In this document: positions 22,257-38,520 of the stretch, one piece after another
Position numbering within the stretch: position 1 is the stretch's first letter
How the letters are laid out: each line of letters opens with the position of its first letter
Source: Candidatus Giovannonibacteria bacterium RIFOXYD1_FULL_48_21
GTDB lineage: Bacteria > Patescibacteriota > Minisyncoccia > JACPKW01 > UBA11713
Reading direction: 5' to 3'
DNA: 64,000 bases
Assembly (NCBI GenBank): GCA_001778985.1
Contig: MFIU01000001.1
Location: forward strand, 50,111 to 114,110
Program-made: the position numbers and the translations under genes
Notes under the pieces: generated by a model
What the model was told of the DNA's origin: nothing
Databases searched by the model: none
The model's input: the letters and a program-made list of their open reading frames with translations, nothing else

Positions 22257-23735
22257 CTACGCCACCCAGAATTTTTCTTTTAATTCTCGGTCGCGGCTGG
22301 CTTCGACTTCTTCCTTTTTCTCTTTGCCGGATTCGGCCAATTTTTTAAGTTCTGCTTCCGAAAGCTCTCCCAGCTCTTTAATTCTACCAATTAAATATTC
22401 TTTAGTATTTTTTTTCGGCTCTTGTAAAACCTCTTCCAAAAGGGCGGAGAGAGCCATGCCGACTTTCGGCCCCGGTCGAATCCTCAAAATTTTCATCACG
22501 TCATCGCCTTTGACCTTAAGCATACCGACCGAAATTGGGTCTTTCTGCACCTTCTCCACCATAAACTTGAAGTGGCGGAGTTTGTAGGGGACTGCCTTGG
22601 GCACGCCGGAGCCGATGCGGTCGGCCTCACGCACCCGAATTAAATCCTCAATCAAATCCGGCCCGACGTTTCTTAAAACTCTTCGGACAGAAGACTCGGT
22701 CACTTCGCCCACATTGTAGTAAAAAAGATGCCAGCGAACGAGGCGGATGACTTTTTCTGAAAAATCTTTGGGAAAGCGCAACCGCTCCAAAATTTTAGCG
22801 GACATCTTGGCGCCCAAAACGTCGTGGCCGTAGAAAGTGGAAAATTTGCCTTCGCCGCGCTTGGCGCGAGGTTTGGCGATATCGTGCAAAAGCGAGGCCA
22901 ATTTAACCTCAAAAGAATAGCCTTTTTTTACCGTATATTCCAGGGCTTTCAAATTATGCTCCCAGACCGTGAAAACATGGTGGAGGTTTTGCCCCACGCC
23001 GACCCCCTCCAAAAGTTCCGGCAAAAATTCTTTAAGAAGACCGGATTCCCGGAGGAATTCAATTCCTTCCGCCGCCCCTTCAGACATAATCAATTTCACA
23101 AACTCATCCCTGATTCTTTCTTTTGAAATAAATTTTAAAAGTCCGGCGTTTTTCTTAACCGCTTCGCGGGTGCGCTCTTCGATGGTAAAATCCAGTTCGG
23201 CGGAAAACCTGACGGCGCGCAGAAGCCGCAGGGCGTCTTCCTGAAAACGTTCGGCTGGCTCGCCGACCGCGCGAATGATTTTGTTTTTCAAATCCTCTTT
23301 GCCGCCAACGAGGTCGATGATTTGGAAGTCCGACTTCCTAGGGAAGTCGGACTTCCCTAGGGCCATCGCCAGAGCATTTATGGTAAAATCCCTGCGGCCG
23401 ATGTCGTCCGCGAGGCTTTGCGCAAACTCAATTTTATCCGGATGGCGCTTGTCTGAATATTTGGCTTCGAGGCGAAAGGGAGTAACTTCAACCACTTTCA
23501 AAGTTTCATCGTCCGAGCCGGTTTTAACGCCCACGGTTCCAAAATCATTTTCATAAAAACTATCTGGAAAAATTTTCTGGATTTCTTCGGGCTTTGCGTT
23601 CGTCGTTATATCCCAATCCTTCGGCTTTTCTCCGCGCAAAAAATCCCGCACGCATCCGCCCACGAGAAAGGCCTCAAAATTATTTTCCCGAAGTTTTTTT
23701 ATAACTTCAACGATTTCTTTTGGAATTTTTGTCAT
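22257..23735 (-). CDS. cca: CCA-adding enzyme / poly(A) polymerase family with a C-terminal HD domain
   Basis: GGCVRDFLRG..DWDITT nucleotidyltransferase head; HD motif in LLHDIAKP. Start moved to MTKIPKEI (23735) because the ORF-track start (23777) runs into tRNA-Arg. Confidence 0.85.
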   Translation of the reverse strand: MTKIPKEIVEVIKKLRENNFEAFLVGGCVRDFLRGEKPKDWDITTNAKPEEIQKIFPDSFYENDFGTVGVKTGSDDETLKVVEVTPFRLEAKYSDKRHPDKIEFAQSLADDIGRRDFTINALAMALGKSDFPRKSDFQIIDLVGGKEDLKNKIIRAVGEPAERFQEDALRLLRAVRFSAELDFTIEERTREAVKKNAGLLKFISKERIRDEFVKLIMSEGAAEGIEFLRESGLLKEFLPELLEGVGVGQNLHHVFTVWEHNLKALEYTVKKGYSFEVKLASLLHDIAKPRAKRGEGKFSTFYGHDVLGAKMSAKILERLRFPKDFSEKVIRLVRWHLFYYNVGEVTESSVRRVLRNVGPDLIEDLIRVREADRIGSGVPKAVPYKLRHFKFMVEKVQKDPISVGMLKVKGDDVMKILRIRPGPKVGMALSALLEEVLQEPKKNTKEYLIGRIKELGELSEAELKKLAESGKEKKEEVEASRDRELKEKFWVA

Positions 23736-23745
23736 ATCAAAGGTG

Positions 23746-23819
23746 CGCCCTCGCCCCGATTCGAACGGGGAATACATGGTCCGAAGCCATGCGTGATATC
23801 CGTTTCACCACGAGGGCAA
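23746..23819 (-). tRNA. tRNA-Arg (anticodon TCG)
   Basis: Manual fold: acceptor gccctcg/cgagggc; anticodon stem catgg/ccatg with loop cttcgga; T-arm ccccg-ttcgaat-cgggg; discriminator G. Confidence 0.8.
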
Positions 23820-23829
23820 CGAGGGAATT

Positions 23830-24186
23830 TTATAATTGGCTTGCGAAATTTTCAATGGCGAGCGAAATAGCATTGGCTCCCACCACCAGCAAGGCTCCAA
23901 TCACCGCCCAGAAAAAAGTGGTTTTGGCTTTTTTTAACTGCTCCTCGTCGCCCCGGGCCGAGACGAATAAAAATCCGGCGTAAATCATAAATACCACCAC
24001 TAGGGGCAATCCAATCTTAGCCGCAATATCAGCAATCTTTGCCATCAGGTCAGCGAAGGTAGAAGACTGAATTGGGTTACAAATTTCTACCGCCGGATTA
24101 CAGCCGATAATCGCAAGTGTAAAAACAGGAAGGAGGAAAATCAAAGAGGGGGTTAGAAACCGCAACAAATGAAAAATTGATTTCAT
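23830..24186 (-). CDS. Small secreted two-TM protein, possibly a TrbC/VirB2-like pilin
   Basis: 118 aa: signal peptide, then two hydrophobic helices separated by a short charged loop (SARGDEEQLKKAKT). Topology only; no sequence signature. Confidence 0.45.
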   Translation of the reverse strand: MKSIFHLLRFLTPSLIFLLPVFTLAIIGCNPAVEICNPIQSSTFADLMAKIADIAAKIGLPLVVVFMIYAGFLFVSARGDEEQLKKAKTTFFWAVIGALLVVGANAISLAIENFASQL

Positions 24187-24285
24187 GAGCTTGCTTAAAT
24201 TTTATCATTTTTCCGGAAACATAAAAGGGGCAGATGCGTTAAGCAGCCGCCCCTCCGTTGCAAAATCCAAGGTGCAAATAAGGTA

Positions 24286-25200
24286 CTACAGGGCTTCGAA
24301 AATGAACACTCCCTCCGCCTTAATCTTAATCTTGAAGATACTTGGGTGATAAACGGAGGGACGAGTGCCATGCTGACGATAATACCCCTCAACATCTACT
24401 AATTCGATGTTGGATTTCCCCCACCTTCTCTCTCTTTCGAGATAAAAGCTCGGAAAATCACAGGCCAGGCACTCCACCCGAGCCCTACCTTCCAGCAGCC
24501 TGATACCTATTGGCTGTAGAAGATATTCTTTTTCTTCCCCCGGGCTCATGAACACTATTACTCCTCGGGGAAGAGTAGGAAGGACGAGTTCACCACTCGG
24601 TGCCCCTGGTCCAGGTTTTCCGCTGCCATCACCCCACGCCTTAGCCAGTTCATCCTTGAGCTTTCTCTGGGCATAAGCGTCGGCTATCCAATCCCCATCT
24701 TCTACAAAACGGGTAACGGCTCGGGGAACGGCAGGAAACAAAGAGCTAAGTAGGGCATAAATGAATGTTGCGACAAAAAGTCTAATCACCCATTTTTTGC
24801 CGGTCTCGCCCTTTGTCCAGCCAGCTTGCCAGGTGAAGAAAAGAGCCGCGATGGAAAGATATAACAAGAACGCAATCTGGTCGCTGCCCTTTATAGCAAG
24901 TCCGGGATAGCGCCCGCTCAAAATTCCCAAGAACTCTATCAAGACAAGGCTAGCCAAGACCCCAAAAATGAGAGTCTTAACCGCCCTGTAAAGCTTCACA
25001 CCCCTGCCGCCCAGCTTTCTGAAGAACCCCTCGGCCTGCTCCTGGTTCAATAGATAGAAAAGGCCGAAGAAAAGCAGAAAAAACCAAATACTCGTTGAGC
25101 CGCCGAGGAAGAAGATCGCGATAAAGGTTAGAACTACGGACATCGTGAAGAGCCAGAAAATATCAGAAAACTCTAACACAAGTTCTTTTTTCTCGTTCAT
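24286..25200 (-). CDS. Hypothetical membrane protein (304 aa) with a C-terminal soluble domain
   Basis: About four N-terminal TM helices. Part of a three-gene operon with overlapping stops and starts (24286-26663). Confidence 0.6.
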   Translation of the reverse strand: MNEKKELVLEFSDIFWLFTMSVVLTFIAIFFLGGSTSIWFFLLFFGLFYLLNQEQAEGFFRKLGGRGVKLYRAVKTLIFGVLASLVLIEFLGILSGRYPGLAIKGSDQIAFLLYLSIAALFFTWQAGWTKGETGKKWVIRLFVATFIYALLSSLFPAVPRAVTRFVEDGDWIADAYAQRKLKDELAKAWGDGSGKPGPGAPSGELVLPTLPRGVIVFMSPGEEKEYLLQPIGIRLLEGRARVECLACDFPSFYLERERRWGKSNIELVDVEGYYRQHGTRPSVYHPSIFKIKIKAEGVFIFEAL

Positions 25201-25958
25201 CTTGGACCTCCTTTTCCTAAGTGGGTACCGATGCCGGTTACAAGATCAATGAAGTCGACAAAGGTATCCAGAATCTGAACCCAGTTCCTTCTCGCGCCTG
25301 TTGGAACCGCTACTGGCGTGGCTTGCCGCCGTTCATCCCTCTCTCTCCGTTTTTGCTCAATCCACTCGCCGAATTCCTCTCTTCTGGCCGCCACTCCATA
25401 GAACAAGAGGGTCGGCAAGTAGAGTAAAACAAGAATAAACCAATGACTCCAGGAACGTAGCCCATAGAAGTTGCGTCTTTTTTCCGCCCTTTCCAGAGCT
25501 TCCTTCCTGACAGGTTTATTCCACCCGATAACGTTTCCTGCGCCGTCAAGCTGCCAATGTTTCAACAGCTTATCAGAAAATGTCGCAAGAACATTCTGAG
25601 AGCGCAGGGTTATCTCAGATGATTGAAGAGGTCGGACTTTATTGATAAATCCTTCCTCAACGCCGCGGACCAGGGGTTGCCCCCAGCCTACAAAGAGACA
25701 AAAGACAAAGAATGTGAAGGTGAGACCGGCCAGCCAGCACCAGCGCCTTTCGTTGGTTTCAAAGAAGCGCCGGTAGTCCGGATGGGCTGATATAGTCCGA
25801 GAAAAGGAGATAAGAACGGTTGAAAGCCACGCGAGATACGCGATGATCATCAACCAGGCAAGATTCTCTCCAGCTGGGTTTTTGGAAAACCACCAGAAGA
25901 GAATTAACACCGCCGCCACCGCCAGTAAAACGCTACAAACAAACATTCGTCTCGACAT
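25197..25958 (-). CDS. Hypothetical membrane protein (253 aa)
   Basis: Four predicted TM helices and a basic, charged C-terminus. Start/stop overlap with neighbouring genes. Confidence 0.6.
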   Translation of the reverse strand: MSRRMFVCSVLLAVAAVLILFWWFSKNPAGENLAWLMIIAYLAWLSTVLISFSRTISAHPDYRRFFETNERRWCWLAGLTFTFFVFCLFVGWGQPLVRGVEEGFINKVRPLQSSEITLRSQNVLATFSDKLLKHWQLDGAGNVIGWNKPVRKEALERAEKRRNFYGLRSWSHWFILVLLYLPTLLFYGVAARREEFGEWIEQKRRERDERRQATPVAVPTGARRNWVQILDTFVDFIDLVTGIGTHLGKGGPR

Positions 25959-25967
25959 AATGCCTCC

Positions 25968-26663
25968 TTACTGTCCGAAATAGATAGCACCTATGATAAG
26001 AAGCAGAAATATCAAAGCTCCAGATAACCAGAGCAATTTCTGCTCCAACGACATCGCGGGTATGGGCGTCAGGGGTTCTTTGATAACAAGCTCCTGCTCG
26101 CAATCGAGTTTCTCGAGCTTCACTTTCACTTTCGCCCGCCGAAAACCTTTCGGTAAACAGACCTCAAAGACATCCCTTCCTGATATATCCGCTCTCCGGG
26201 GGGATTCCCTGAAATCTCCATCCCATACAGCGGTATAAACATAATCCGCCTCAACACCGCACCCTTTCTCGTCCCGCACCTCTACCCCAACTAAAACCTC
26301 CCATTCCCAGCTACTTTTTTCGCTTATCGCATCTCGACGGAGCTCCATCTTTGGTTTTGGATAAGGCAAGCTTACCTCCAAAATATGGTTCCGGATCGGA
26401 GTGCCGTCCACATCCACTGAGATAATCGGCGGCGGGACAAGCGACACATCCTCAAGAATGGTAGAGACGCTACCATTTCCCAGAACTTCGGCGGTTTTGG
26501 AGAGATTCTTGTTTATAAAGAACCTAACCGCCCGTCCCGGACGCGCGAGTCGCGAACCGAAATAAGGAATAAGAATAAGACCGAGATTGGCAGTGGTCAA
26601 AGTCACGGGACTTACTTTTTGGTCCTTCAAAACTATCCTGAACCCACTTTCGTTGTCTGCCAT
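25968..26663 (-). CDS. Hypothetical tail-anchored protein (231 aa): soluble N-terminal domain with a single C-terminal TM helix
   Basis: C-terminal LLWLSGALIFLLLIIGAIYFGQ. First gene of the minus-strand operon. Confidence 0.6.
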   Translation of the reverse strand: MADNESGFRIVLKDQKVSPVTLTTANLGLILIPYFGSRLARPGRAVRFFINKNLSKTAEVLGNGSVSTILEDVSLVPPPIISVDVDGTPIRNHILEVSLPYPKPKMELRRDAISEKSSWEWEVLVGVEVRDEKGCGVEADYVYTAVWDGDFRESPRRADISGRDVFEVCLPKGFRRAKVKVKLEKLDCEQELVIKEPLTPIPAMSLEQKLLWLSGALIFLLLIIGAIYFGQ

Positions 26664-26749
26664 AAACTCACCTTCCTTTCTTTCTGGTTTGTTTTGTGCC
26701 TTTATTTAGCCTTTAAATTGTCAATGATTTGTTCAAAATTATAGCTGAT

Positions 26750-26778
26750 TTGACATAAAAAGTCAAGGATGATATATT
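26750..26778 (+). promoter_or_regulatory. Sigma70-like promoter TTGACA-N17-TATATT driving the 26785 gene, nearly leaderless, with an overlapping inverted repeat TTGAC-N7-GTCAA
   Basis: -35 at 26750-26755 and -10 at 26773-26778 read directly. ATG at 26785. Palindrome ttgacataaaaagtcaa. Confidence 0.5.
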
Positions 26779-26784
26779 TATAGA

Positions 26785-27054
26785 ATGTTGCCCGCATCTT
26801 TAAGGCCTCTTTTTTGGTCTTACGAGTTTGAAAAGCTTAACTTGGAAAAGGATGGACCTCTTATTATCCGACAAGTCATAAATTACGGGAGGTGGGAAGA
26901 TTGGAAGTGGCTTTTAAAAAATTACGGCAGGGGAAAAGTCAAAAAAACCATTCAAGCCACGCCGGCTTCCGGTTTCCGGCCCCAAGCCCTGAAACTCATT
27001 ACCCTTCTCCTAGGAGCGGCGGAACCAAAATATGCATCCAGAAGCACTCGCTGA
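26785..27054 (+). CDS. Small protein encoded upstream of, and overlapping, the nucleotidyltransferase gene. Candidate antitoxin-like partner.
   Basis: 89 aa. 23-nt overlap with the downstream gene. No recognised fold. Confidence 0.45.
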   Translation: MLPASLRPLFWSYEFEKLNLEKDGPLIIRQVINYGRWEDWKWLLKNYGRGKVKKTIQATPASGFRPQALKLITLLLGAAEPKYASRSTR

Positions 27055-27649
27055 AAGCGCGCGAATTCTCCTGCCTCGCCTGGGCGGAATAGATAATTTT
27101 TACCTGGCTGGAGGGAGTGCGTTAGCGCTTCAAATCGGGCACCGCCTTTCAGAGGATTTAGATTTTTTTTCTGACAGCAAAATTAAAAAAACCCTGCTCC
27201 CGAAAATTGAGAAAATTCTTGAAGGAGGGACGGCGAGAACGGGGGTGAACAACTCCGGGGAACTTACTTTGGTGTCAGGTTCAATAAAAATTACGTTTCT
27301 CCATTATCCTTTCCCCCTTCTTTTCCCATTACTAAATTACAAAGGAATCCGTTTGGCAAACATCAGAGAAATTGCCTGCATGAAGGCCTACACGATTGGA
27401 AGGCGCGGGAGCTTCAAGGACTACGTGGACATTTATTTCGTACTCAAAGAAGGGCTTGAAAAGATTGAGAACATCATTGCCGATGCCCGGAGAAAATATA
27501 CCGAAGCGTTTGACGCCAGGCTTTTTTTGGAACAACTTCTTTATCTCGAAGATATCCAGGATATGGAAATAAAGTTTCTAAAAAGCCGCATTGGGAGAGA
27601 AGAGATAAAAAATTTTTTCCAGAAAAAGATTAAAGCGATAAAGCTCTAG
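27032..27649 (+). CDS. Possible nucleotidyltransferase of the AbiEii/DUF1814-like toxin family
   Basis: Glycine-rich NTase-like head LAGGSALALQIGHRLSEDLDFF. 205 aa. Paired with an overlapping small upstream ORF. Confidence 0.55.
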   Translation: MHPEALAESARILLPRLGGIDNFYLAGGSALALQIGHRLSEDLDFFSDSKIKKTLLPKIEKILEGGTARTGVNNSGELTLVSGSIKITFLHYPFPLLFPLLNYKGIRLANIREIACMKAYTIGRRGSFKDYVDIYFVLKEGLEKIENIIADARRKYTEAFDARLFLEQLLYLEDIQDMEIKFLKSRIGREEIKNFFQKKIKAIKL

Positions 27650-27651
27650 AG

Positions 27652-28524
27652 TCAACCCTTCCGTCTTCTCGCATGAAACGCTCTATGGACCTCGCGCAAG
27701 GAGCGGTCAGTTACATGCGTATAAATCTGGGTGGTGGTGATGCTGGAATGCCCCAAAAGCGCCTGCACCGAACGCAAATCCGCTCCGTTTATAAGTAAAT
27801 CGGTCGCGAACATGTGGCGCAGGACATGCGGTGTCACTTTTTTCGAAATCCCGGCCTTGGCCGCGTAATATTTAAGGAGCCGCTCCACGGAACGGGGAGT
27901 GATGGGAAAAAGTTTTTCGGAAATATCCTCGCGTTTCTCCAAATATTCCTTGAGCGCTTTTTTGGCTCGGGACGACAAGAAAACCACCCTCACTTTCTCG
28001 CCCTTGCCCCTGACGGAAAATTCTTCTTTGTTCAAATCTACCGAATCTCTATCCAGTCCCGCGAGTTCCGAAACCCGGAGCCCGGTCGAAAATAAAAGCT
28101 CCACAATCGCGCGGTCCCGTAAAATTTTCAAATCGCCTCCCTCCGGAGCTTTCAGCAATCTTTCCAGCTCCTCGACTGAAATCAAATCCAAATCGCGCTC
28201 CGGCGCTTTGGCGAGTAAAATTCTCTCGGCCGACATACTCTCGACTCCGCGCCAAGCCAAGTACTTCAAAAAATTTCGAAGCGCGATTAAATGGTAGTTC
28301 TGGGTTCGCTTCTTAAAATTCTCGCGGTTCAAAAAAAGGCGAAAGCGCCTGACCAGCTCGTCGTTAATCGCGGCCGGCGAGGAAATGTTGGCAAAGCCGA
28401 AGAATTTTTTAAGGTAGCGGTCGTAATTTTCCACGGTTTTGAGCGAACGCCCCCGTTCGATTTCAAGGTATTCCAAAAATTGCCGGTGAAGCTCCTTTAA
28501 CTGCATAATTATATTTTGCGACAT
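27652..28524 (-). CDS. xerC: Tyrosine site-specific recombinase, XerC/XerD family
   Basis: C-terminal catalytic region HVLRHMFATDLLINGADLRSVQALLGHSSITTTQIYTHV, with R..HxxR..Y. Confidence 0.85.
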   Translation of the reverse strand: MSQNIIMQLKELHRQFLEYLEIERGRSLKTVENYDRYLKKFFGFANISSPAAINDELVRRFRLFLNRENFKKRTQNYHLIALRNFLKYLAWRGVESMSAERILLAKAPERDLDLISVEELERLLKAPEGGDLKILRDRAIVELLFSTGLRVSELAGLDRDSVDLNKEEFSVRGKGEKVRVVFLSSRAKKALKEYLEKREDISEKLFPITPRSVERLLKYYAAKAGISKKVTPHVLRHMFATDLLINGADLRSVQALLGHSSITTTQIYTHVTDRSLREVHRAFHARRRKG

Positions 28525-28568
28525 TGCCTAGAGTTGTCAAAGTCTAAAAATTATGCTATTCTTAAAAC

Positions 28569-28844
28569 ATGCTTAAAACCAAAGAAAAGCAGAAAGTTAT
28601 AGAGAAATTTAAAATCCACGAAAAAGACACCGGCTCCTCCCAGGTGCAGGCGGCGCTTTTGAGTGAAGAAATCAAACGTCTGACCGAGCATCTAAAAACC
28701 CACCGCAAGGACAAACATTCCCGCCGGGGCCTTTTGCAGATGGTTTCAAAAAGAAAAACTCTTCTGGATTATCTTTCGCGCCAAGACCCCAAGGCTTACG
28801 TCGAGGTGGCCAAGAAAGTCGGGCTTAAGGCCAAGGCATTATAA
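28569..28844 (+). CDS. rpsO: 30S ribosomal protein S15
   Basis: 91 aa (GSSQVQAALLSEEIKRLTEHLKTHRKDKHSRRGLLQMVSKR). TTGTCA-N17-TATTCT upstream. Confidence 0.95.
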   Translation: MLKTKEKQKVIEKFKIHEKDTGSSQVQAALLSEEIKRLTEHLKTHRKDKHSRRGLLQMVSKRKTLLDYLSRQDPKAYVEVAKKVGLKAKAL

Positions 28845-29350: not shown

Positions 29351-29369
29351 CTATTATAAATTTTAAGGG

Positions 29370-29427: not shown

Positions 29428-29444
29428 CATCAAGATATAAAAAA

Positions 29445-31607
29445 ATGGTGACAAAAAAATATACGACTGATTTCGGCGGGAAGACTCTTTCCGTCGAATT
29501 TCCGGACCTCGCCGAGCAGGCCCACGGCTCGGCTTTGGTTCGCCTGGGCGACACCGTGATTCTCGCGACCGCGGTTATGTCTCAAAATATCCGCGAGGGA
29601 ATTGATTATTTTCCTTTGACGGTGGATTACGAAGAGCGTTTTTACGCCGCCGGGAGAATTTTGGGCTCGCGCTTTATCAGGCGCGAGGGACGCCCGTCCG
29701 AAGAGGCGATTTTAATTTCGCGCCTGATTGACCGCGGGCTAAGGCCTCTTTTCAACCACAAAATCAGAAACGAGGTTCAGGTGGTGGCTCTGGCTCTTTC
29801 TTTTGACGGCGAAAACGAGCCGGATATTCCGGCCATTCTCGCGGCCTCACTGGCCTTGGGAACTTCTTCCGTCCCTTGGTCAGGCCCGATCGGCGCTTTA
29901 AGAATAGGAAGAGTCAACGGCGAATTCGTTTTGAATCCGCTCCGCTCGGAGCTTGAAAAATCAGATTTGGACCTGGTCCTCTGCGGCAAGGATGGAAAAA
30001 TAAATATGGCGGAGGCCGGCGCCAAAGAAGTTCCGGAAGAAGAAATACTGAAAGCTCTCGAGTTTAGCCAGAAAAAACTTGAGAAAATCGAAATCTTCCA
30101 AAAAGAAGTTATCCGCGAGCTCGGCCAAGAGAAAGTGATGCCGCCCTTGAAAGAGGAGCCGGAAAAACTCGCTGAAATTTTTGAGAAAAATTTCCGTTCG
30201 CGCCTGGAGGAAACTTTGTATCTCAAGGAAAAGAAAGTCCGAAATCAAACTCTGTTCAAGCTAAAAGAAGAGTGGGACGAGAAAGTTACAAAAGAAGTCG
30301 GAGAAGAATTCAAAGAAGTTCTAAATAGATTTTGGGAAGAAAAAATCGATGAAATCGTCCACAAAAATATTTTGGAGAAAGAACTGCGTCCGGACGGCCG
30401 GGGACTTAAAGAACTCCGTCCGCTCTGGGCCGGAGTAGGAATTTTGCCCAGAATCCACGGCTCCGGACTTTTCTACCGCGGGGAAACTCACGTGCTCTCG
30501 CTCGCGACCTTGGGCGGCCCGGGCGACACCCAGCTCGTGGAAGGGATGAGCATTCGCGCCAAAAAACGCTTCATGCACCACTATAATTTTCCGCCTTTCG
30601 CTCCGGGTGAAACCGGGCGCATGGGAAATCCCGGGCGGCGCGAGATCGGGCACGGGGCGCTCGCGGAACGCTCGCTTTTGCCGATACTGCCGGGGATTTC
30701 CGAATTCCCTTATACGATTCGGGTGGTTTCTGAAGTTCTTTCCTCGAACGGCTCCACTTCCATGGCTTCAGCCTGCGCTTCGACTTTAGCGCTGATGGAT
30801 GCCGGCGTTCCGATAAAACGGCCGGTGGCCGGAATCGCCATGGGACTGGTCATGGAAAATCCGAAATCCGAAATCCGAAATCCGAAATTTAAAGTGCTGA
30901 CCGATATCCAAGGTCCGGAGGACCATTACGGCGATATGGACTTTAAATCCGCCGGAACCTCCCAGGGCGTTAGCGCGATTCAGATGGACGTAAAAGTTTT
31001 GGGAGTAACGCTTGAAATTTTGCGCCAAACTCTCGCCGACGCCAAAGCCGCCCGCGAGAAAATCTTGGCCGTTATGCTCTCGGCCCTACCCGCGCCTCGC
31101 GCCGAGCTCTCCCAATACGCTCCGCGAATCTTGACGCTTAAAATAAATCCGGAGAAAATCCGCGAGCTCATCGGCCCGGGCGGAAAAATGATTAACGCCA
31201 TCATCGCCGAGACCGGGGCCACGATAGACGTGGAACAGGACGGCACCGTCTTCGTCACCGGTTCCAAGGAAGCTTCGGAAAAAGCTTTGGAAAAAATAAA
31301 AGAAGTCACGCACGAATACCAAGTGGGGGAGACTTTCGAAGGTACTATTTCCAGAATTTTTGATTTCGGAGCCATGGTGGAATTCGCGCCCAAGCAGGAA
31401 GGCTTGGTGCATATCTCCGAGCTTGCGCCCTGGCACGTGAAAAACGTTACGGACGTGGTGGATATAGGCGACCGGGTTAAAGTCAAGATAAAAAGCATCG
31501 ACGAGCTGGGGCGCATCAATCTTTCCATCAAAGAGGTGGCAAGTCTTGAACCTAAAAAGCAGGCGGCAAAACCGGCAACATGGAGCCCCAAGCATCAGAG
31601 CCGCTGA
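29445..31607 (+). CDS. pnp: Polyribonucleotide nucleotidyltransferase (PNPase)
   Basis: Two RNase PH domains, a KH domain (IRELIGPGGKMINAII) and a C-terminal S1 domain. Contains an in-frame (AAATCCG)x4 tandem repeat at 30857-30888. Confidence 0.95.
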   Translation: MVTKKYTTDFGGKTLSVEFPDLAEQAHGSALVRLGDTVILATAVMSQNIREGIDYFPLTVDYEERFYAAGRILGSRFIRREGRPSEEAILISRLIDRGLRPLFNHKIRNEVQVVALALSFDGENEPDIPAILAASLALGTSSVPWSGPIGALRIGRVNGEFVLNPLRSELEKSDLDLVLCGKDGKINMAEAGAKEVPEEEILKALEFSQKKLEKIEIFQKEVIRELGQEKVMPPLKEEPEKLAEIFEKNFRSRLEETLYLKEKKVRNQTLFKLKEEWDEKVTKEVGEEFKEVLNRFWEEKIDEIVHKNILEKELRPDGRGLKELRPLWAGVGILPRIHGSGLFYRGETHVLSLATLGGPGDTQLVEGMSIRAKKRFMHHYNFPPFAPGETGRMGNPGRREIGHGALAERSLLPILPGISEFPYTIRVVSEVLSSNGSTSMASACASTLALMDAGVPIKRPVAGIAMGLVMENPKSEIRNPKFKVLTDIQGPEDHYGDMDFKSAGTSQGVSAIQMDVKVLGVTLEILRQTLADAKAAREKILAVMLSALPAPRAELSQYAPRILTLKINPEKIRELIGPGGKMINAIIAETGATIDVEQDGTVFVTGSKEASEKALEKIKEVTHEYQVGETFEGTISRIFDFGAMVEFAPKQEGLVHISELAPWHVKNVTDVVDIGDRVKVKIKSIDELGRINLSIKEVASLEPKKQAAKPATWSPKHQSR

Positions 31608-32383
31608 AAGAAAAACTGCCGCCCATCCGGACGATGCGGTCGGATGCCGCGGCCGCGTCTCAAAAGCCCGGGACCTCGGCCATCTCTCTTCTGGCCCGCC
31701 GCCTGAAACAAAAACGAGACGAAACCCCCCAAAAACCTTCTTCGCCAAAACGAACGTGGCTCATCGCGGGGATTTTGATTTTTTTCCTCCTCGCCGCTCT
31801 GGCCGGCGCTTGGATTTATTTCAAATATTTAAAACTAGAGCCGCCGCCAGCGCCCGTCGAAGAGCGGCCGGAGAAATTGATTGCGGCCGAAGAAGAAATC
31901 TTGGACATTAAAGAGTTGGAAAATATTCTTTCACACGGGCCTGAAGTTGAAAAATTTAAAGTTATTTTTTTCAACTTAAGCCCGGGAGAATTTCTGGCGC
32001 GGACGGGTTTAAAGCCGCCCGCCAGATTAAAATCCCAAATCCAAGTTTACAATCTGGGGCTGTTTAACGACGCGGGCCTGATTCACCCGTTTTTGATATT
32101 CAAAGTGGCCTCATTTGAGGAAGCGTTCGCCGGAACGCTTTTGTGGGAAAAAAATATGCCCAAGGAATTTCAAATATTTTTTCCTCGTCTTCGCGAGGTA
32201 AGTGAGCTGGAAATATCTTTTCAGGACCAAGTCATTAAAAACCAAGACGCCCGGGTGCTGGTCCGAGACGGCGCGGCCGAATTCCTCTACACTTTTTTCA
32301 ATAAAAATCTTTTGATAGTAACCGATTCCCAAAAAACGCTCGAGGCCATAATTTCTCGCTATACCATATTTAGACCGAATTAA
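31580..32383 (+). CDS. Hypothetical membrane-anchored protein
   Basis: 267 aa with one TM helix (WLIAGILIFFLLAALAGAWIYF). Overlaps the pnp 3' end by 28 nt, so the start is uncertain; an alternative ATG is at 31634. Confidence 0.5.
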   Translation: MEPQASEPLKEKLPPIRTMRSDAAAASQKPGTSAISLLARRLKQKRDETPQKPSSPKRTWLIAGILIFFLLAALAGAWIYFKYLKLEPPPAPVEERPEKLIAAEEEILDIKELENILSHGPEVEKFKVIFFNLSPGEFLARTGLKPPARLKSQIQVYNLGLFNDAGLIHPFLIFKVASFEEAFAGTLLWEKNMPKEFQIFFPRLREVSELEISFQDQVIKNQDARVLVRDGAAEFLYTFFNKNLLIVTDSQKTLEAIISRYTIFRPN

Positions 32384-32423
32384 AAAGGTTGCGCCTCCAA
32401 AAAATCTAGTCTAATCTGGGCTA

Positions 32424-32780
32424 ATGGCTTGGGAAAGATTCAAAAAACTTTTGGAAGAAGAGAAAGTTAGGCTCGAGAAAGAACTCTCCCAGATTGCGAG
32501 GAAAAACCCGGAAAACCCGGAGGATTGGGAAGTGAAGGCGCCGGAGATGAATCCGATGGTTTCTGACCAGTCGGAGCTCGCGGATATGTTTGAAGAATTG
32601 GAAACCCAGGCCGGCTTGGAATACCAGCTAGAAGAGAGATTGAAAAAAGTGAACGCGGCTTTGAAAAGAATCGAGGATGGAAGCTACGGCGTCTGCTCGG
32701 TCTGTAGCGAGAAAATCGACGAGAAGCGTCTCGAGGCAAATCCTTTGGCAAAAAACTGCATCGAGCACACCGAGCAATAG
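32424..32780 (+). CDS. DksA/TraR-family C4-type zinc-finger protein
   Basis: C-terminal CSVCSEKIDEKRLEANPLAKNCIEHT. Confidence 0.7.
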   Translation: MAWERFKKLLEEEKVRLEKELSQIARKNPENPEDWEVKAPEMNPMVSDQSELADMFEELETQAGLEYQLEERLKKVNAALKRIEDGSYGVCSVCSEKIDEKRLEANPLAKNCIEHTEQ

Positions 32781-32782
32781 AT

Positions 32783-34312
32783 ATGACCGCGGTCAAAACT
32801 CACTCTGCGGAAATTGTGGGCCTGGCGGGAGAGATAATCGACGTGGAGGTGGACCTCTCCCCGGGCCTTTTTCATTTTTCCATCGTGGGCCTCGCGGACA
32901 AGGCCGTGGAAGAATCAAAAGAACGGGTCTCCTCGGCCATTAAAAATTCCGGCCTCCGGCACCCCCAGAAAAAAAACCAGCGGGTCGTGGTTTCTCTCGC
33001 TCCGGCCGACCTCAAAAAAGAAGGACCTTTGTTTGACCTGGCGATTGCCTTAGGCTATCTTCTGGCTTCGAATCAGATTGAATTCGAGCCAAAAGGAAAA
33101 ATTTTTCTGGGAGAGCTTGCTCTCGACGGCGGCTTAAGAAAAATAAAAGGCGCGCTAGCGCTGGCGCTCGCGGCCAAAGACCAAGGCTTTCAGGAAATAA
33201 TTCTCCCGGAAGAAAATGCGGCGGAGGCCAGCTTGGTAGAAGGAATAAAAATATTTGGAGTTAAAAGCTTGGGTGAGGTGCTGAAACATCTTATCGGCGA
33301 GAAGACACTTTTACCCCAGCCGCGGCTTAAAATTGAAAATAAAACTTTTTATCCGTTTGATTTCGGGGAGATTAAAGGACAGGAGCTCTCAAAGAGAGGG
33401 CTCACCCTGGCCGCGGCCGGAGGACATCATGTTTTGATGGTGGGCCCTCCCGGAACCGGTAAAACCATGTTAGCCCGGGCCCTGCCTTCAATTCTTCCGG
33501 AGATGAACTTTGATGAAATGCTGGAGGTAACCCGGATTCACTCTGTTTCGGGAAATTTAAAAAAGGCTTACCTTTCGGAGCGTCCGTTTCGAAATCCGCA
33601 CCACACCGCCTCCTACGTGGCGCTGGTTGGCGGCGGCCAGAGTCCGCATCCGGGAGAGATTACTTTGGCGCACCGCGGGGTTTTGTTTCTGGATGAATTT
33701 CCGGAATTCGAACGAAGAGTTCTCGAAGCGCTCCGCCAGCCTCTGGAAGACGGCGAGATTACGGTTTCCCGCGCCAAAGGAACTATCACTTTTCCGGCGA
33801 GAAGCCTTTTGGTTTTTGCCATGAACCCCTGCCCTTGCGGGAATTTCGGCTCGGAGAAAAAACCCTGCCTCTGCTCCACGCAGACCTTGTATCGCTACCA
33901 AAGAAAGGTTTCAGGACCAATCGCGGACCGGATTGATATTTGGCTTGAGGTGCCGCACTTTGAACACGAGAAAATGAGTCAGAAATCCAAACCAGAAAGT
34001 GAAGCAATTCGACAAAGAGTGAAGAGGGCTCGGGAAATTCAGGGAGAGCGCTTTCACGGCAAAGACATCGCTCTGAACGCCGAGATGCGGCCGAAAGAGC
34101 TGGAGGAGCTTACCCCGCTCTCTGGAGAAAACCAGGAACTTCTGCACACGGCCGCTAAAAAATTAGACCTCTCGGCCCGGGCCTATCACCGCGTGATTAA
34201 ACTTTCGCGCACCATCGCGGACCTCGAAGAATCTAAAAACATAAAACAAGAGCATCTTTTGGAAGCGCTCCAATACCGCCCCCGAAAAAACTTTTTCGTG
34301 TATGAAACTTGA
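32783..34312 (+). CDS. comM: ComM/YifB Mg-chelatase-like AAA+ ATPase
   Basis: N-terminal Lon-like domain (VSLAPADLKKEGPLFDLAIALGYL); Walker A GPPGTGKTM; ChlI-type C-terminus. Confidence 0.9.
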   Translation: MTAVKTHSAEIVGLAGEIIDVEVDLSPGLFHFSIVGLADKAVEESKERVSSAIKNSGLRHPQKKNQRVVVSLAPADLKKEGPLFDLAIALGYLLASNQIEFEPKGKIFLGELALDGGLRKIKGALALALAAKDQGFQEIILPEENAAEASLVEGIKIFGVKSLGEVLKHLIGEKTLLPQPRLKIENKTFYPFDFGEIKGQELSKRGLTLAAAGGHHVLMVGPPGTGKTMLARALPSILPEMNFDEMLEVTRIHSVSGNLKKAYLSERPFRNPHHTASYVALVGGGQSPHPGEITLAHRGVLFLDEFPEFERRVLEALRQPLEDGEITVSRAKGTITFPARSLLVFAMNPCPCGNFGSEKKPCLCSTQTLYRYQRKVSGPIADRIDIWLEVPHFEHEKMSQKSKPESEAIRQRVKRAREIQGERFHGKDIALNAEMRPKELEELTPLSGENQELLHTAAKKLDLSARAYHRVIKLSRTIADLEESKNIKQEHLLEALQYRPRKNFFVYET

Positions 34313-34346
34313 CCGAGAGTTAAGAATCTACTAAAATTAGTTCATC

Positions 34347-34532
34347 ATGACTCTGAACACCGAGATAAAAATTAAGAAAATGGAACGGGAGATAAAAGAA
34401 CTCTGGCAAATAGTCGGGGATGAGATATTTTGGCATCCCTCGGTTATCGATGAAATAAAAAAACGCTCGCGCCAAAGCCATTTGAATTTGAAGAAACTCA
34501 AGACCGCCAAAGAGCTTTTCGCATCCATTTAG
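34347..34532 (+). CDS. Small putative antitoxin-like protein
   Basis: 61 aa, charged and helical. Its stop directly abuts the ATG of the truncated RelE/ParE-like ORF. Confidence 0.35.
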   Translation: MTLNTEIKIKKMEREIKELWQIVGDEIFWHPSVIDEIKKRSRQSHLNLKKLKTAKELFASI

Positions 34533-34664
34533 ATGGCTAAGGTCTTATTTTCACCTGCGGCGGAGAAAGACGTAAAACATCTCGAGGCAGGCGTCCAAAC
34601 TGAATTAAAAGATAAACACATTCGCGATAATTTCTATAAAAAGTTTTCTCGACGAATTCGCTAG
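34533..34664 (+). pseudogene. Truncated RelE/ParE-like toxin remnant (43 codons)
   Basis: MAKVLFSPAAEKDVKHLEAGVQTELKDKHI resembles the N-terminus of RelE/ParE toxins, but the ORF stops after 43 aa with no continuation in the other frames. Confidence 0.35.
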
Positions 34665-34699
34665 CAACGAAAAAGCGCGTAAGGCCTTATTTTTCGAGG

Positions 34700-35719
34700 C
34701 TAAAACGGGTTCCTCGCCCCGCGGACCTCAAAATGCACATGGCAGCCGGTGGATTGGCCGGTGCGGCCGACATAGCCCAAAACCTGGCCCTGAACCACAT
34801 GCCAGCCAGGAGACGCAATGATTCCGTTTAAGTGAGCGTAAAGAGTCTGGGTACCGTTGGAATGGGAGAGGACGGCATACTGGCCGTAGCCGCCGTTCCA
34901 GCCGGTCGGCCGCGAAATCAAAACCTCTCCCGAAGCCGAGGCCAAAATCGGCGAGCCGCAATAAGTCGCGAGGTCAACTCCGTTATAGCCGTGAAGCCCT
35001 TGTGACTTCCGGCCGCCATTTATCGGTCTAATATAGTACCCGGAGTAACTCGGGCCGCCGGTTCCGCGGACGTTAGACGACGAATAGCTGACAAGCGGTT
35101 CTGCTTCACCGTTGGGAATGATGAGGGCCATCCCTTCCTCTAAAACGTCTTCCGAACCAAGCCCGTTGAAGCTTAAAATCTCTTCAGCATCCCCGCCGAA
35201 TTTTTTGGCAATGAACTTAAGCGTATCGCCTTTTTTAACCGTGTACTGCACTCCGGAGACCGGCAGAATCACCAGCACTTCGCCGGGGCTTATCAGGGTG
35301 GAGCGCGTAAGGTTGTTAGCCCAGCGGATGGTGTTGACTGAAACCCCGAAAATTCTGGCGATGGAAGAAAGAGTATCTCCCTGCCGCACCGCGTAAAGCG
35401 AGATTGAATCCGGCCGTTGCTCCACCACGTCCGCGATGGAGCCCAACGGCCCGGTTACGGGCAAGAGGGCGGAATTTTGCACGATATTAACCTCACCGCC
35501 GCCCACGCCCGCCAAAAGATTGGCGTTAAACGGCGCCGAAAGCAGGGGCAGGGTTTGAGAATTCCCCGAGATCGTGCTGGCCTCATTGGTCCAGCCGAGA
35601 ATCTTCTCAAAAATATTGAAAAATTTAGCCTCTGCTCGGGAAAGGCCTAAAAGAAAAGAAAAAAACAAAGAAATAATCAAAAAGCCGAGAAGAAAAAGCG
35701 CGTTTGAATTGGAGTACAA
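34700..35719 (-). CDS. M23-family metallopeptidase with two LysM domains
   Basis: LysM repeats (YAVRQGDTLSSIARIFGVSVNTI and YTVKKGDTLKFIAKKFG). M23 catalytic motifs (HGYNGVDL, HVHFEV). Confidence 0.85.
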   Translation of the reverse strand: MYSNSNALFLLGFLIISLFFSFLLGLSRAEAKFFNIFEKILGWTNEASTISGNSQTLPLLSAPFNANLLAGVGGGEVNIVQNSALLPVTGPLGSIADVVEQRPDSISLYAVRQGDTLSSIARIFGVSVNTIRWANNLTRSTLISPGEVLVILPVSGVQYTVKKGDTLKFIAKKFGGDAEEILSFNGLGSEDVLEEGMALIIPNGEAEPLVSYSSSNVRGTGGPSYSGYYIRPINGGRKSQGLHGYNGVDLATYCGSPILASASGEVLISRPTGWNGGYGQYAVLSHSNGTQTLYAHLNGIIASPGWHVVQGQVLGYVGRTGQSTGCHVHFEVRGARNPF

Positions 35720-35833
35720 TGGTTTATGGTCTAATGAATTAAAAGATAGCTATACGCTATCTCAATTTCATACTTTACCATTTTTTAGGCTCTTTCTTAT
35801 CCCCACGGAAAATAAAGATATACTTTTAATAAT

Positions 35834-37711
35834 ATGTCAATGGAATTTAGCTTAAATCAGGCTCAAGAAAGGGCTGTATTGACAGCGGACGGCCCAGTAT
35901 TGATAGTAGCAGGGGCTGGTTCAGGCAAAACCATGGTCTTGGCGCACCGCATAGCGCATCTGATTGAAAAAGGCGTCAAGGCAGACCAGATTTTGGCCAT
36001 CACTTTCACCAATAAGGCGGCTGAAGAGATGCGGAATCGCATAAACTCCTTAATTCCCAATTCCCAATTCCCAATTCCCAAACCCTGGGTGGGCACCTTT
36101 CACTCTTTTTCGGCCTTTGTCCTGCGCCAATCAGGCCGGGCCATTGGCGTTGGCAAAACTTTCTCGATTGTGGACGAAGAAGACAGCTTGGCCCTGGTCA
36201 AAGAAGCGCTCGCGGATTTAGAATTGGACCCTAAAAAATTTGAACCAAGAAAACTTCGCGCCCTAATCTCTCGAAAGAAAAACGAAATGGAAGGCCGGGA
36301 AAATTTTAATCAAAGTTATTTTGAAAAAATTCTCGTCCGGGTCTGGGAAAAATATGAAGAGAAGTTGGAAAAAGCCAAAGCGCTCGACTTTGACGACCTG
36401 CTTTTGAAAACCGTGGAACTTTTCTCTAAACACCCCGGGATTTTGGAAGAATGGCAGGAACGCTTCCGCTATCTCCACGTGGACGAATACCAGGACACCA
36501 ATTTGGTGCAGTACCATCTGGCGAAACTTCTCGCCCAAAAATACAGAAATATCTGCGTGGTGGGCGATATTGACCAGGCGATTTACTCCTGGCGCGGCGC
36601 AGACTTCAGAAACATCCTTCATTTCGAACGGGACTGGCCGGAGGCGAAAATAATCACCCTGGAGGAAAATTACCGCTCCACCCAATTGATTCTCGACGCC
36701 GCGAACGCCGTGATTGTCAAAAACAAATCACGCGTTCCTAAAAATCTTTTCTCACAGAAAAAATCCGGCCCCAAGATTACTCTTTTTGAATCCGTAAGCG
36801 AAGAAGAAGAGGCCAGCTTCATCGCGGCGCTTTCCAAAACCCTGGTTCGGGACGGCAAAATCCCGCCGCGGGAGATCGCGGTTCTGTACCGCACCAATTT
36901 CCAGTCGCGGATTCTGGAAGAAAAAATGTTAGAGGAGAATATTCCATACCAAGTGGTGGGCGTTAAATTTTACGAACGAAAAGAAATCAAAGACACGCTC
37001 GCCTACCTCAAGGCCTCGTTAAATAGCGAAGATTTGCTTTCAGTAAAAAGAATAATAAATTTTCCGCCGCGCGGAATCGGGAAAGCGCTTTTGACGAAGT
37101 TTTTGGCTGGAGAAAAATTGCGACAGGCAGAAGAGTTCATAAAAATAACCTCGGAAATTAAAGATGCAATCGAAACAAAAAACGCGAGTGAGGCTGTAAA
37201 AAGCGTCATCCAAAAATCCGGCCTCGAGGACTATCTTCAAGACGGAACAGAGGAAAGCGAGATGAGGCTTTCAAATATAAAAGAACTCGTGACCCTTGCC
37301 AGGCGCTATGACGAAGCTAAACCGCCGGAAGGGATTTTAAAACTTTTGGAGGACGCGGCGTTGATGTCTGAACAGGATACCATGAAAAAGGAAGAGAACT
37401 CCGTGAAACTTATGACCGTGCACGCGGCCAAAGGCCTGGAATTTAAAATGGTTTTTATCGCGGGCCTCGAAGAAGGATTATTTCCGCACCGCGCCATCTC
37501 CAGAGAAGACGAAGAACTGCGCCAGGAAGAAGAAAGACGGCTTTTTTACGTGGCCTTAACCCGCGCCAAGGAGAAAATCTATCTCTCCTACGCCGTTTTT
37601 CGGACTATTTTCGGAGAGCGAAGAATCAATCTTCCGTCGAGTTTTCTCTTGGATATCCCGGAGGAGTTTTTAGAGCGCGCCCCGGATAAAATAATCACTT
37701 TGGAATCATGA
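35834..37711 (+). CDS. pcrA: ATP-dependent DNA helicase PcrA/UvrD, short form
   Basis: GAGSGKT Walker A, DEYQDTN motif II, TVHAAKGLEF motif. Contains an in-frame (AATTCCC)x4 repeat at 36052-36079. Confidence 0.9.
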   Translation: MSMEFSLNQAQERAVLTADGPVLIVAGAGSGKTMVLAHRIAHLIEKGVKADQILAITFTNKAAEEMRNRINSLIPNSQFPIPKPWVGTFHSFSAFVLRQSGRAIGVGKTFSIVDEEDSLALVKEALADLELDPKKFEPRKLRALISRKKNEMEGRENFNQSYFEKILVRVWEKYEEKLEKAKALDFDDLLLKTVELFSKHPGILEEWQERFRYLHVDEYQDTNLVQYHLAKLLAQKYRNICVVGDIDQAIYSWRGADFRNILHFERDWPEAKIITLEENYRSTQLILDAANAVIVKNKSRVPKNLFSQKKSGPKITLFESVSEEEEASFIAALSKTLVRDGKIPPREIAVLYRTNFQSRILEEKMLEENIPYQVVGVKFYERKEIKDTLAYLKASLNSEDLLSVKRIINFPPRGIGKALLTKFLAGEKLRQAEEFIKITSEIKDAIETKNASEAVKSVIQKSGLEDYLQDGTEESEMRLSNIKELVTLARRYDEAKPPEGILKLLEDAALMSEQDTMKKEENSVKLMTVHAAKGLEFKMVFIAGLEEGLFPHRAISREDEELRQEEERRLFYVALTRAKEKIYLSYAVFRTIFGERRINLPSSFLLDIPEEFLERAPDKIITLES

Positions 37712-37781
37712 ACCCCGTTAGAAATAAATCGCCCAAGGCGATTGCCGACATGCCTTTGGCAAGTCGGATTTCTAACGGGGT
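37712..37781 (+). other. Second copy of the clamp-type structured element. A 14-bp outer stem (ACCCCGTTAGAAAT / ATTTCTAACGGGGT) encloses two hairpins, between the pcrA stop and the ksgA start.
   Basis: 37712-37725 pairs with 37768-37781. Inner hairpins are aatcgcc/ggcgatt and ccgac..tgcc-ttt-ggca..gtcgg. The probable ksgA ATG (37750) lies inside the second hairpin. Confidence 0.55.
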
Positions 37782-38520
37782 GAAGCCAAAAAAGCGGCTG
37801 GGACAGCATTTTTTAAGGAATAAAAAAATTCTGGAAGAAATTGCTCGGGCGGCCGAGCTTTCGAAGCGAGATATAGTTCTAGAAGTTGGCCCGGGACACG
37901 GAGAACTTACGGAATTTTTGGCCGCATCCGCTGGAAAAGTTATCGCCGTGGAAAAAGACCATGAACTTACTCTATTTCTTAAAGAAAAATTCAAAAATTA
38001 CAAAAATGTCGAAATCGTTGAAGGAGATATTTTGAAAATTGGAAAATTGAAAATTGAAAATTATAAAGTGGCGGCAAATCTTCCATACTACATTACTTCG
38101 CGTTTTTTGCGGGCTTTTCTGGAGGCAAAAAATAAGCCAAAGCTCATGGTCTTAATGGTACAATACGAGGTCGCAAAACGAATTTGCGCGAAGCCGCCCG
38201 GAATGAATTTGCTGGCGCTCTCGGTTCAGGCTTACGCCCGACCGAAGTTTATCAGAAAAGTTTCAAAAAAATATTTCTTCCCTCCGCCCAAAGTTGACTC
38301 TGCTATTATCAAATTGTTGAACATTGAATGTTCAACATGTTCGACATTGCCGCCAAAGTTTTGGAAGGTAGTGCGCTTGGCCTTCCAGCAGAAACGAAAA
38401 ATGCTCCGGCATTTATCCGTGCCGAAAAAATATGAAACCAAGCGCCCCCAGGAACTTTCGCTGGAAGATTGGCTAAAAATCATCCGCAGCCGCAAATATT
38501 TAACATGCCATCCCAAATAA
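37750..38520 (+). CDS. rsmA: 16S rRNA (adenine1518/1519-N6)-dimethyltransferase
   Basis: RLGQHFL, SAM-binding VLEVGPGHGELT, NLPYYIT. Start chosen at MPLASRISN; the ORF track starts at 37708. Contains an in-frame (GAAAATT)x4 repeat at 38034-38062. Confidence 0.85.
   Translation: MPLASRISNGVKPKKRLGQHFLRNKKILEEIARAAELSKRDIVLEVGPGHGELTEFLAASAGKVIAVEKDHELTLFLKEKFKNYKNVEIVEGDILKIGKLKIENYKVAANLPYYITSRFLRAFLEAKNKPKLMVLMVQYEVAKRICAKPPGMNLLALSVQAYARPKFIRKVSKKYFFPPPKVDSAIIKLLNIECSTCSTLPPKFWKVVRLAFQQKRKMLRHLSVPKKYETKRPQELSLEDWLKIIRSRKYLTCHPK

Follow-up and report, generated by a model that had tools for sequence, protein, structure and literature searches.

How do tandem repeats with a unit of seven nucleotides, which is not a multiple of three, come to lie in frame within core housekeeping genes? 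The question is raised by a 64-kb stretch of DNA, hereafter the window, from Candidatus Giovannonibacteria, a tiny groundwater bacterium represented by metagenome-assembled data. Within this window heptamer arrays are translated as part of pnp, pcrA and ksgA, and a duplicated palindromic unit as part of cca. The results presented here indicate that the heptamer arrays are probably ordinary heptanucleotide simple-sequence repeats born in place, and the cca repeat a separate palindromic module that may be kept by template switching. The arrays are no high-frequency switch.

Repeats in frame within four core genes

Repeats were called in the window by Tandem Repeats Finder (TRF), a regular-expression census, the raw sequence and the translation of open reading frames (ORFs), and the identities of the host genes were taken from NCBIfam profiles. 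The four repeats and their hosts are as follows.

30857..30888, plus strand: pnp array, (AAATCCG)x4.57, perfect (TRF x4.6, 100% match), residues 471-481, ENPKSEIRNPK
36052..36081, plus strand: pcrA array, (AATTCCC)x4.29, perfect (TRF x4.3, 100% match), encoding IPNSQFPIPK
38032..38062, plus strand: ksgA array, (TTGAAAA)x4.3 with one extra G (TRF 92%), encoding KIGKLKIEN
23324..23362, minus strand: cca palindromic module, 18/19-nt unit x2.1 (TRF), encoding KSDF-PR-KSDF
29445..31607, plus strand: pnp, polynucleotide phosphorylase (PNPase), host ORF; NF008805, 884 bits
35834..37711, plus strand: pcrA/uvrD-family helicase, host ORF; TIGR01073, 728 bits
37708..38520, plus strand: ksgA/rsmA 16S rRNA dimethyltransferase, host; TIGR00755, 211 bits, above the cut-off of 171
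22257..23735, minus strand: cca, class II CCA-adding tRNA nucleotidyltransferase with HD domain, host; NCBIfam 273 bits, 492 aa

The preliminary description of this DNA, made from the sequence alone, had held that the repeats are real, in frame and non-random and map to variable loops, and this was borne out by TRF, by translations that match the peptides it quoted and by simulation. Perfect period-7 arrays of at least three copies, the threshold adopted, number three in the window and were absent from each of 100 Markov-3 simulations, and the cca palindrome pattern has two matches against 0.16 expected. TRF reproduced the pnp array of 4.5 copies at 30857-30888 and the 18-19-nt unit of cca at 23324-23362, the latter in a gene of the minus strand. 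Two entries require small corrections: the pcrA array, given as four copies at 36052-36079, extends to 36081, and the ksgA array, described as (GAAAATT)x4 at 38034-38062, was counted slightly generously, as it consists of three perfect copies at 38042-38062 plus one 8-nt unit, TTGGAAAA.

The pcrA array is located between helicase motif Ia (TFTNKAA) and WVGTFH, in a protein that scores below the equivalog cut-off of TIGR01073 and has the UvrD-helicase Pfam architecture. The ksgA array begins inside the conserved GDILK motif, at its Leu-Lys codons. Because seven is not divisible by three, each heptamer unit is translated through all three frames in turn, which results in a peptide period of seven residues (21 nt), with ~1.5 periods per array. 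The placement of two of the sites was analyzed on AlphaFold models, those of PNPase and the CCA enzyme. In the former (predicted local distance difference test, pLDDT, 80.6), residues 471-481 form a coil tip between strands 462-470 and 482-486, where the pLDDT dips to 61. In the latter (pLDDT 87.7), KSDFPRKSDF occupies the tip of the beta-hairpin 123-126/137-140, and the sole stretch of pLDDT below 50, residues 129-134, lies in that tip. Both modelled sites are predicted to be exposed, and the heptamer arrays encode hydrophilic, indel-tolerant tips of beta-hairpins or linkers.

Some features of the surroundings may be mentioned. The three heptamer arrays all lie within 7.2 kb of the window, each time with the A-rich strand as the sense (plus) strand; such clustering has a chance of ~0.035 by our own arithmetic and may merely mirror the location of permissive genes. 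The ksgA ORF carries a 24-residue N-terminal extension, MNPVRNKSPKAIADMPLASRISNG (37708-37779), that is not in the orthologue of the relative L087 (loci of relatives are designated by such numbers), and ksgA overlaps the end of pcrA by 4 nt both in the window and in L087. The minus strand bears five tRNA genes from 14.8 to 23.8 kb, and one of them, tRNA-Arg(TCG) at 23745-23817, stands directly upstream of cca and covers the first 14 codons (23736-23777) of the longest cca ORF. The start of cca is likely to be at 23735, judging from the sequence, since the longer ORF (to 23777) overlaps this tRNA gene.

Origin and turnover at tolerant loops

The source of the repeated unit is clearest in ksgA, where a codon-level comparison of five lineages showed that the unit tracks the adjacent Leu codon of GDILK. 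When Ile-Leu-Lys is written ATT TTG AAA, as in the window and in L018, the unit is TTGAAAA or TTGGAAA, respectively, and when it is written ATT CTA/CTT AAA, as in L087, L091 and L092, the unit is TCTAAAA/TCTTAAA. In pnp, four out of four arrays (window, L088, L089 and L072) begin at the same Glu codon, as GAAA.., and the AAATCCG unit is common to the window and the distant L088 because both share the seed codons GAA AAT. These correspondences argue for a locally generated unit in ksgA and pnp, and for pcrA the evidence is suggestive. A recombination patch acquired from a distant pnp was also considered in view of the unit shared with L088, and was rejected on the ground that the flanks of the array resemble L087 and not L088. 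Neither target-site duplications nor terminal inverted repeats are visible at the arrays in the alignments to L087.

Comparison with close relatives revealed a different history at each loop. The pnp array is absent from the syntenic, 94% identical L087, whose loop is 6 aa shorter, and the loop is short in the 94%, 93% and 80% relatives (MKDEKNFK, MGDK); therefore, the array of the window is a recent net gain of six residues. Compared with the window, the 93-94% relatives lack 6-11 residues of the loop in pnp and 8 in cca. The corresponding loop of pcrA is non-repetitive and of similar length in the relatives, so the array replaces sequence and adds none. In ksgA, L087, L091 and L092 hold an older, decaying TCTAAAA-type heptamer array of the same length, encoding SK(I/V)LNLKSEYK, which in L087 is still called by TRF (x6.1 at 75%). 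All units of the ksgA array differ alike between the window and L087, which supports occasional re-homogenisation after tandem duplication. The cca element is missing in L087 (89%-identical), and a longer related element is present in L092 (~70% identity). Lineage-specific insertion, as envisaged in the preliminary description, hence applies to pnp (+6 aa versus the 94% relative) and, with respect to L087 alone, to cca, and does not apply to pcrA and ksgA, given the same-length loops of their relatives; of the four repeats only that of pnp is a clean recent insertion. The alignment of orthologues that it called for did place the arrays in variable loops; at odds with its reading, the ksgA peptide of the relatives persists over decayed repeats. 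As a separate strain-level indel, a toxin-antitoxin-like DUF6922/AbiEii pair (26785-27649), next to a XerC/D-type integrase (27652-28524), is absent from L087.

The same loops carry other arrays in independent lineages of Parcubacteria, with units of their own. Arrays at the pnp loop were found in L088 (degenerate CGAAATC), L089 (AAAAACC) and L072 (GAAAGTW), the best species representatives for the PNPase being Patescibacteria with at most 58% identity. At the pcrA loop an AATGTCA array occurs in L013, and P0246 has a periodic variant of the same length, LISNSKFLISKP, to be compared with LIPNSQFPIPKP of the window. The ksgA loop contains (TTGGAAA)x4.29 in L018 and 7-periodic peptides in many representatives. 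In cca, the loop between motif B (DFTINA) and IIDLVGG spans 6-47 residues in 120 homologues and is rich in periodic or palindromic peptides. Insertions of other kinds are likewise seen at the pnp loop: the Candidate Phyla Radiation (CPR) PNPase of L020 (3700-3765) holds DPSTSSGQA, encoded by non-repetitive, GC-richer DNA, and Gly/Ser/Ala-rich insertions are found in other relatives. Therefore, this loop accepts several kinds of insertion.

On a shorter time scale the arrays are stable. From NCBI, ENA and JGI assemblies, six loci were compared; their identity to the window is 99.91-100%, with up to 12 single-nucleotide polymorphisms in 14 kb, and the repeat sequence is identical in all covering assemblies (6/6 for three sites, four assemblies for the cca site). 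In protein clusters at 90% identity every repeat-covering member has the same length at the repeat (8 pnp, 8 pcrA and 4 ksgA variants), the sole difference being an Ile to Asn change within the pcrA array of three variants. Therefore, at the level of consensus sequences, the arrays change on this time scale through substitution and not copy number, and the earlier suggestion of hypermutable sites is contradicted by arrays identical in the six assemblies and in all cluster variants.

The following course of events, an origin in place, is considered probable. Seven bases overlapping conserved flanking codons would be duplicated in tandem, by replication slippage or short-range template switching, in DNA encoding the indel-tolerant hairpin tips or linkers of PNPase, PcrA and KsgA. 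Selection would merely filter the products, requiring a net length change that is a multiple of three, reached at times via a 1-nt indel as in ksgA, together with a unit free of stops in any frame, a hydrophilic peptide from the translated strand and an exposed loop. Once established, an array would persist for long at its loop, where it would decay by point substitution except when, now and then, a mutated unit re-homogenises it.

Array size, the cca hairpin and competing explanations

Period 7 is the modal tandem period of the CPR loci, with 13 of ~46 arrays in 783 kb against 0 in 641 kb of non-CPR loci. Within 422 kb of unrelated metagenome loci, 75 period-7 arrays were counted versus 31 of period 5, 17 of period 6 and 2 each of periods 8 and 9. 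Approximately half of the CPR period-7 arrays are placed in long ORFs and half in short frames, which at a coding density of ~94% (gene calls) makes them roughly ten times denser per base in non-coding DNA, a point that counts against the preliminary description. The units of intergenic arrays contain stop codons on both strands. Stop-containing TAGTTTT arrays occur in two CPR loci (L005 16682-16705, L024 13280-13306), in short frames only and probably intergenic, and a related TAGGTTT array (L067 3277-3310) is read on the opposite strand within a ThiI-like ORF.

A metagenome scan for (AAATCCG)x3 returned at least 119 stretches, in contigs of 32-70% GC. The idea of a repeat-generating process specific to the lineage consequently survives as a tendency, period 7 being modal in CPR loci, and fails as regards exclusiveness, in view of that range of contigs and of a repeat class already published. 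In long ORFs the AAATCCG arrays favour, by 36:10 (z ~3.8, our arithmetic), the sense that encodes the hydrophilic NPKSEIR, which supports a filter on the peptide. Among perfect AAATCCG arrays (n=89, loci L094-L173) the commonest length is 32 nt and none exceeds 34 nt; the period-7 arrays of other units nearby fall into two length classes, 17-20 and 31-33 nt. Arrays of 3.x and 4.x copies are distributed alike in long ORFs (20:26) and in short frames (22:21). A reading-frame filter admitting 1+3n copies was rejected as the reason for the 4.x copies, the profile being the same in both contexts. Likewise, the proposal that the frame is kept by copy number or by compensation in the flanks holds for the 1-nt compensating indel of ksgA and not for the ~4.5-copy size, which does not depend on context. 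A universal ceiling of ~34 nt was rejected as well, as 7/41 GAAAATT arrays in viral contigs measure 36-77 nt (one of 77 nt, the others no longer than 41 nt). In addition, unrelated and often high-GC contigs (L095, L098, L100, L122 and L171; L104, L105, L141 and L149) contain AAATCCG arrays that form inverted pairs 36-170 nt apart or that lie in the loop enclosed by a longer inverted repeat (gtagcagccgacgtgaggaggctc...); these arrangements suggest repetitive extragenic palindromic (REP)-like hairpin elements built around heptamers.

The cca repeat is of another nature. It consists of two 15-nt palindromes, GGAAGTCCGACTTCC at 23324-23338 and GGAAGTCGGACTTCC at 23342-23356, which are mutual reverse complements, and the RNA folds into a perfect 15-bp stem (-36.4 kcal/mol, z=-6.2). 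A hairpin is present at the same position of cca in six lineages (the window, L092, L213, L214, L215 and, degenerate, L216), with folds of -22 to -36 kcal/mol in five of them and -9.7 kcal/mol in L216. The arms change from lineage to lineage (GGAAGTC/GACTTCC, GGACATC/GATGTCC, GGGGTC/GACCCC, CCGAAGT/ACTTCGG) and the peptide shifts with them, from KSDF to TSDV to GSDP. According to RNAalifold on the six lineages, 8 of the 14 pairs show compensatory double changes. No Rfam family matched the hairpin or the arrays, a plant microRNA match of 24 bits falling below the gathering threshold of 101.7, and the sequence lacks a terminator-like U-tract after the hairpin. A dispersed REP-like element was rejected as an explanation, since the palindrome occupies one site in the window and was found only in cca among 212 loci. 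The cca repeat may be an old palindromic module at a permissive site; the most economical way to keep its arms complementary would be intrastrand template switching, in which one arm serves as the template for the other. Template switching creates and maintains perfect hairpins with multi-base compensatory changes and needs no selection (PMC8794818), and concerted changes of the arms have been described as an outcome of template switches during replication (PMC8604942, PMC7202029). A neutral hairpin is favoured over a selected one because L087 does without the element and the site is a disordered tip; a selected cis-element is still a live minority reading.

Several points weigh against the proposed origin and against neutrality. 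The preference for period 7 and the 32-nt peak (31-33 nt) are not explained by simple open-ended slippage. In the closest array-free relatives a single clear copy of the unit is not evident for pnp and pcrA, where the seed is less clear than in ksgA. For an essential gene to go from ~1.5 to ~4.5 copies, either several units would have to be added at once or frameshifted intermediates would have to exist briefly. The stability between strains was read from consensus assemblies and not from reads. The enzymology of slippage and template switching is inferred from footprints, and the absence of function for the loop peptides or the hairpin is likewise a matter of inference. Finally, the covariation of the cca hairpin is of the kind usually read as function, and four hosts that bind nucleic acids, with Lys-rich loops, make a selected role possible.

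Such a role would imply that the repeats are kept as Lys/Asn-rich substrate-binding loops, as a G-quadruplex (G4) on the pcrA template strand or as a regulatory RNA or DNA hairpin in cca, and it is considered rather unlikely. All four hosts act on nucleic acids, repeat-derived and often basic peptides recur at the same loops in many lineages, and in ksgA SK(I/V)LNLKSEYK is conserved in relatives as the DNA repeat decays. However, loop sequences vary across lineages, being Gly/Ser-rich, acidic or absent in close relatives, the 93-94% relatives cope with the shorter loops of pnp and cca, and the models have low confidence and no packed structure at the tips. The reverse complement of the pcrA array, TTGGGAATTGGGAATTGGGAATTGGGAATT, is (GGGAATT)4, with four G3 tracts and 4-nt loops, a canonical G4 motif of a type that forms G4 in vitro (PMC4692102) and that is confined to pcrA among the arrays. 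This motif, predicted from sequence, falls on the template strand of a gene for an essential helicase and is intragenic, unlike the GGGNATC family. As RNA, the heptamer arrays are unstructured (z 0 to +1.8). As to the cca hairpin, its presence in six lineages, its compensatory pairs and its strongly negative z speak for function, whereas covariation in a DNA palindrome can arise unselected by template switching (PMC8794818) and neither an Rfam match nor a U-tract accompanies it.

A bolder proposal, distinctly unlikely in our opinion, combines two elements. Heptamer arrays of ~30 nt and their hairpin derivatives would be written in many bacterial phyla by a dedicated, length-limited process rather than left behind by ordinary slippage, and this process would be the main source of new core-enzyme loops in CPR bacteria; separately, the cca hairpin would be a selected cis-element, controlling for instance the stability or translation of its own mRNA.

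It is improbable that small mobile or selfish elements inserting in frame left the arrays and the cca palindrome behind. The wide occurrence of AAATCCG arrays, their discrete modal size of 32 nt and the fact that some of them are paired in inverse orientation or enclosed by longer inverted repeats would be consistent with mobility, and Rickettsia palindromic elements (RPEs) do insert palindromic DNA in frame into metabolic genes (PMC10969869). Nevertheless, the unit differs from array to array, a search for donor arrays found no second copy of any heptamer unit within the 64 kb over which copy number was judged, and the cca palindrome is likewise unique there. The arrays stand in register with adjacent conserved codons, whose synonymous state they track, in pcrA and ksgA the loop sequence has been replaced without a change of length, which is not a pattern of presence or absence, and the elements measure 30-40 nt as against ~150 bp for RPEs. 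Dispersed copies, terminal repeats and filled or empty sites, as in miniature inverted-repeat transposable elements or RPEs, were thus not found within the 64 kb and the alignment to L087.

The arrays are very improbable as contingency or phase-variable loci, in which pnp, pcrA and ksgA would be turned on and off, or their loops varied within the population, as 7-nt units are often gained or lost. Phase variation by heptanucleotide repeats is known, as in the HMW1A promoter of H. influenzae (PMC8262952), and perfect arrays of more than four copies are slippage-prone in principle. However, the copy number does not differ among the close strains, either in the six assemblies or in the cluster variants, and the PNPase protein recurs exactly in 35 indexed blocks of the collection, in contigs from many samples. 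The repeats lie in PNPase, PcrA, KsgA and the CCA-adding enzyme, none of them a surface, antigen or restriction-modification protein; in such core housekeeping genes any change by one unit is a frameshift, and arrays at the same loops of relatives are decayed, not length-polymorphic. Chance low complexity or assembly artefacts, for which metagenome assembly and A-rich coding sequence might speak, are a negligible prospect given the simulations, arrays far below read and assembly k-mer length, their identity in NCBI, ENA, JGI and Logan assemblies, and the long conserved ORFs that the arrays leave intact.

Two further regions of the window contain short repeats. Downstream of tRNA-Pro, the intergenic segment 16864-16985 holds at least seven copies of TGTTTCAC, including two TGTTTCACGTGAAACA palindromes, and has the appearance of clustered iterons or operators to which a DNA-binding protein would attach, or of an origin-like region. 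At 53831-53994 an AT-rich segment (GC ~0.40 over 52-54 kb) bears several short tandem repeats with periods of 6, 9 and 16.

Known repeat classes and significance for Parcubacteria

Heptamer direct repeats also occur as the short tandemly repeated repetitive (STRR) heptamers of cyanobacteria. The element class of the arrays described here is already known and no new biological system is involved: they are heptanucleotide long simple sequence repeats (LSSRs), with head-to-tail 7-nt units beyond chance and period 7 over-represented. Heptanucleotides are the most abundant class of long-unit repeats in most prokaryotes and are ascribed to polymerase slippage, and repeats within genes are mainly those with units divisible by three (Mrazek et al. 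2007 via PMC4679880). Heptanucleotide LSSRs (PMC4679880) share with the present arrays the excess of period 7, the low copy number, the slippage origin and the higher density in non-coding DNA, and differ from them in that the arrays of the window are translated, lie inside core housekeeping genes and recur at homologous loops.

Other families resemble the arrays in part. The GGGNATC heptamers of Xanthomonas and Nostoc prefer four units (Rehm et al. 2015, PMC4692102), and the pcrA unit, as the reverse complement of GGGAATT with four G3 tracts and about four units, is akin to them (PMC4692102). However, those repeats lie for the most part between genes, close to gene ends, and are read as G4 regulators. 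The units of pnp and ksgA are devoid of G-tracts and yet form arrays of the same size, which suggests that the four-unit preference is not specific to G4. The TAACTGA repeats of marine Beggiatoaceae and cyanobacteria (PMC4679880) are likewise heptamer direct repeats, in 2-6 copies and across distant phyla; one unit dominates each genome, mainly just upstream of starts and with stops, whereas here each site has its own unit and a sense strand free of stops. The amino-acid tandem repeats of Borgs (Schoelmerich et al. 2023, PMC9879509) are also recent, A-rich repeats within ORFs that form new disordered segments and recur in homologous proteins, but all their units have lengths that are multiples of three, giving perfect amino-acid repeats, which sets the 7-nt arrays apart from that class.

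For the cca module the closest likenesses are RPEs (PMC10969869), palindromic DNA translated in frame at tolerant positions of conserved enzymes. RPEs are, however, dispersed, multi-copy, mobile elements of ~150 bp with a conserved peptide, and the cca module has ~33 nt, is single-copy in the window and keeps to one site across lineages. Quasipalindrome or template-switch mutagenesis (PMC7202029, PMC8794818, PMC8604942) yields one-step inverted repeats and concerted arm changes, also in coding sequence; it is a mutational mechanism and not an element family, and judging from the pattern it would have acted at cca.

The recurrence of arrays at homologous loops across Parcubacteria, the seeding by flanking codons and the concerted turnover at constant length go beyond what was found described. 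The arrays show non-triplet microsatellites turning into protein sequence in very small, gene-dense genomes, where a small, recurring set of loops in PNPase, PcrA, KsgA and the CCA enzyme serves as long-lived repeat sinks across Parcubacteria. Arrays of the same size with units that have no G-tracts argue against a purely G4 cause of the period-7 preference for about four units. For annotation, the loop peptides are to be regarded as repeat-derived and not as functional motifs, and in alignments and phylogenies of CPR core genes the columns of these loops are not homologous residue by residue.

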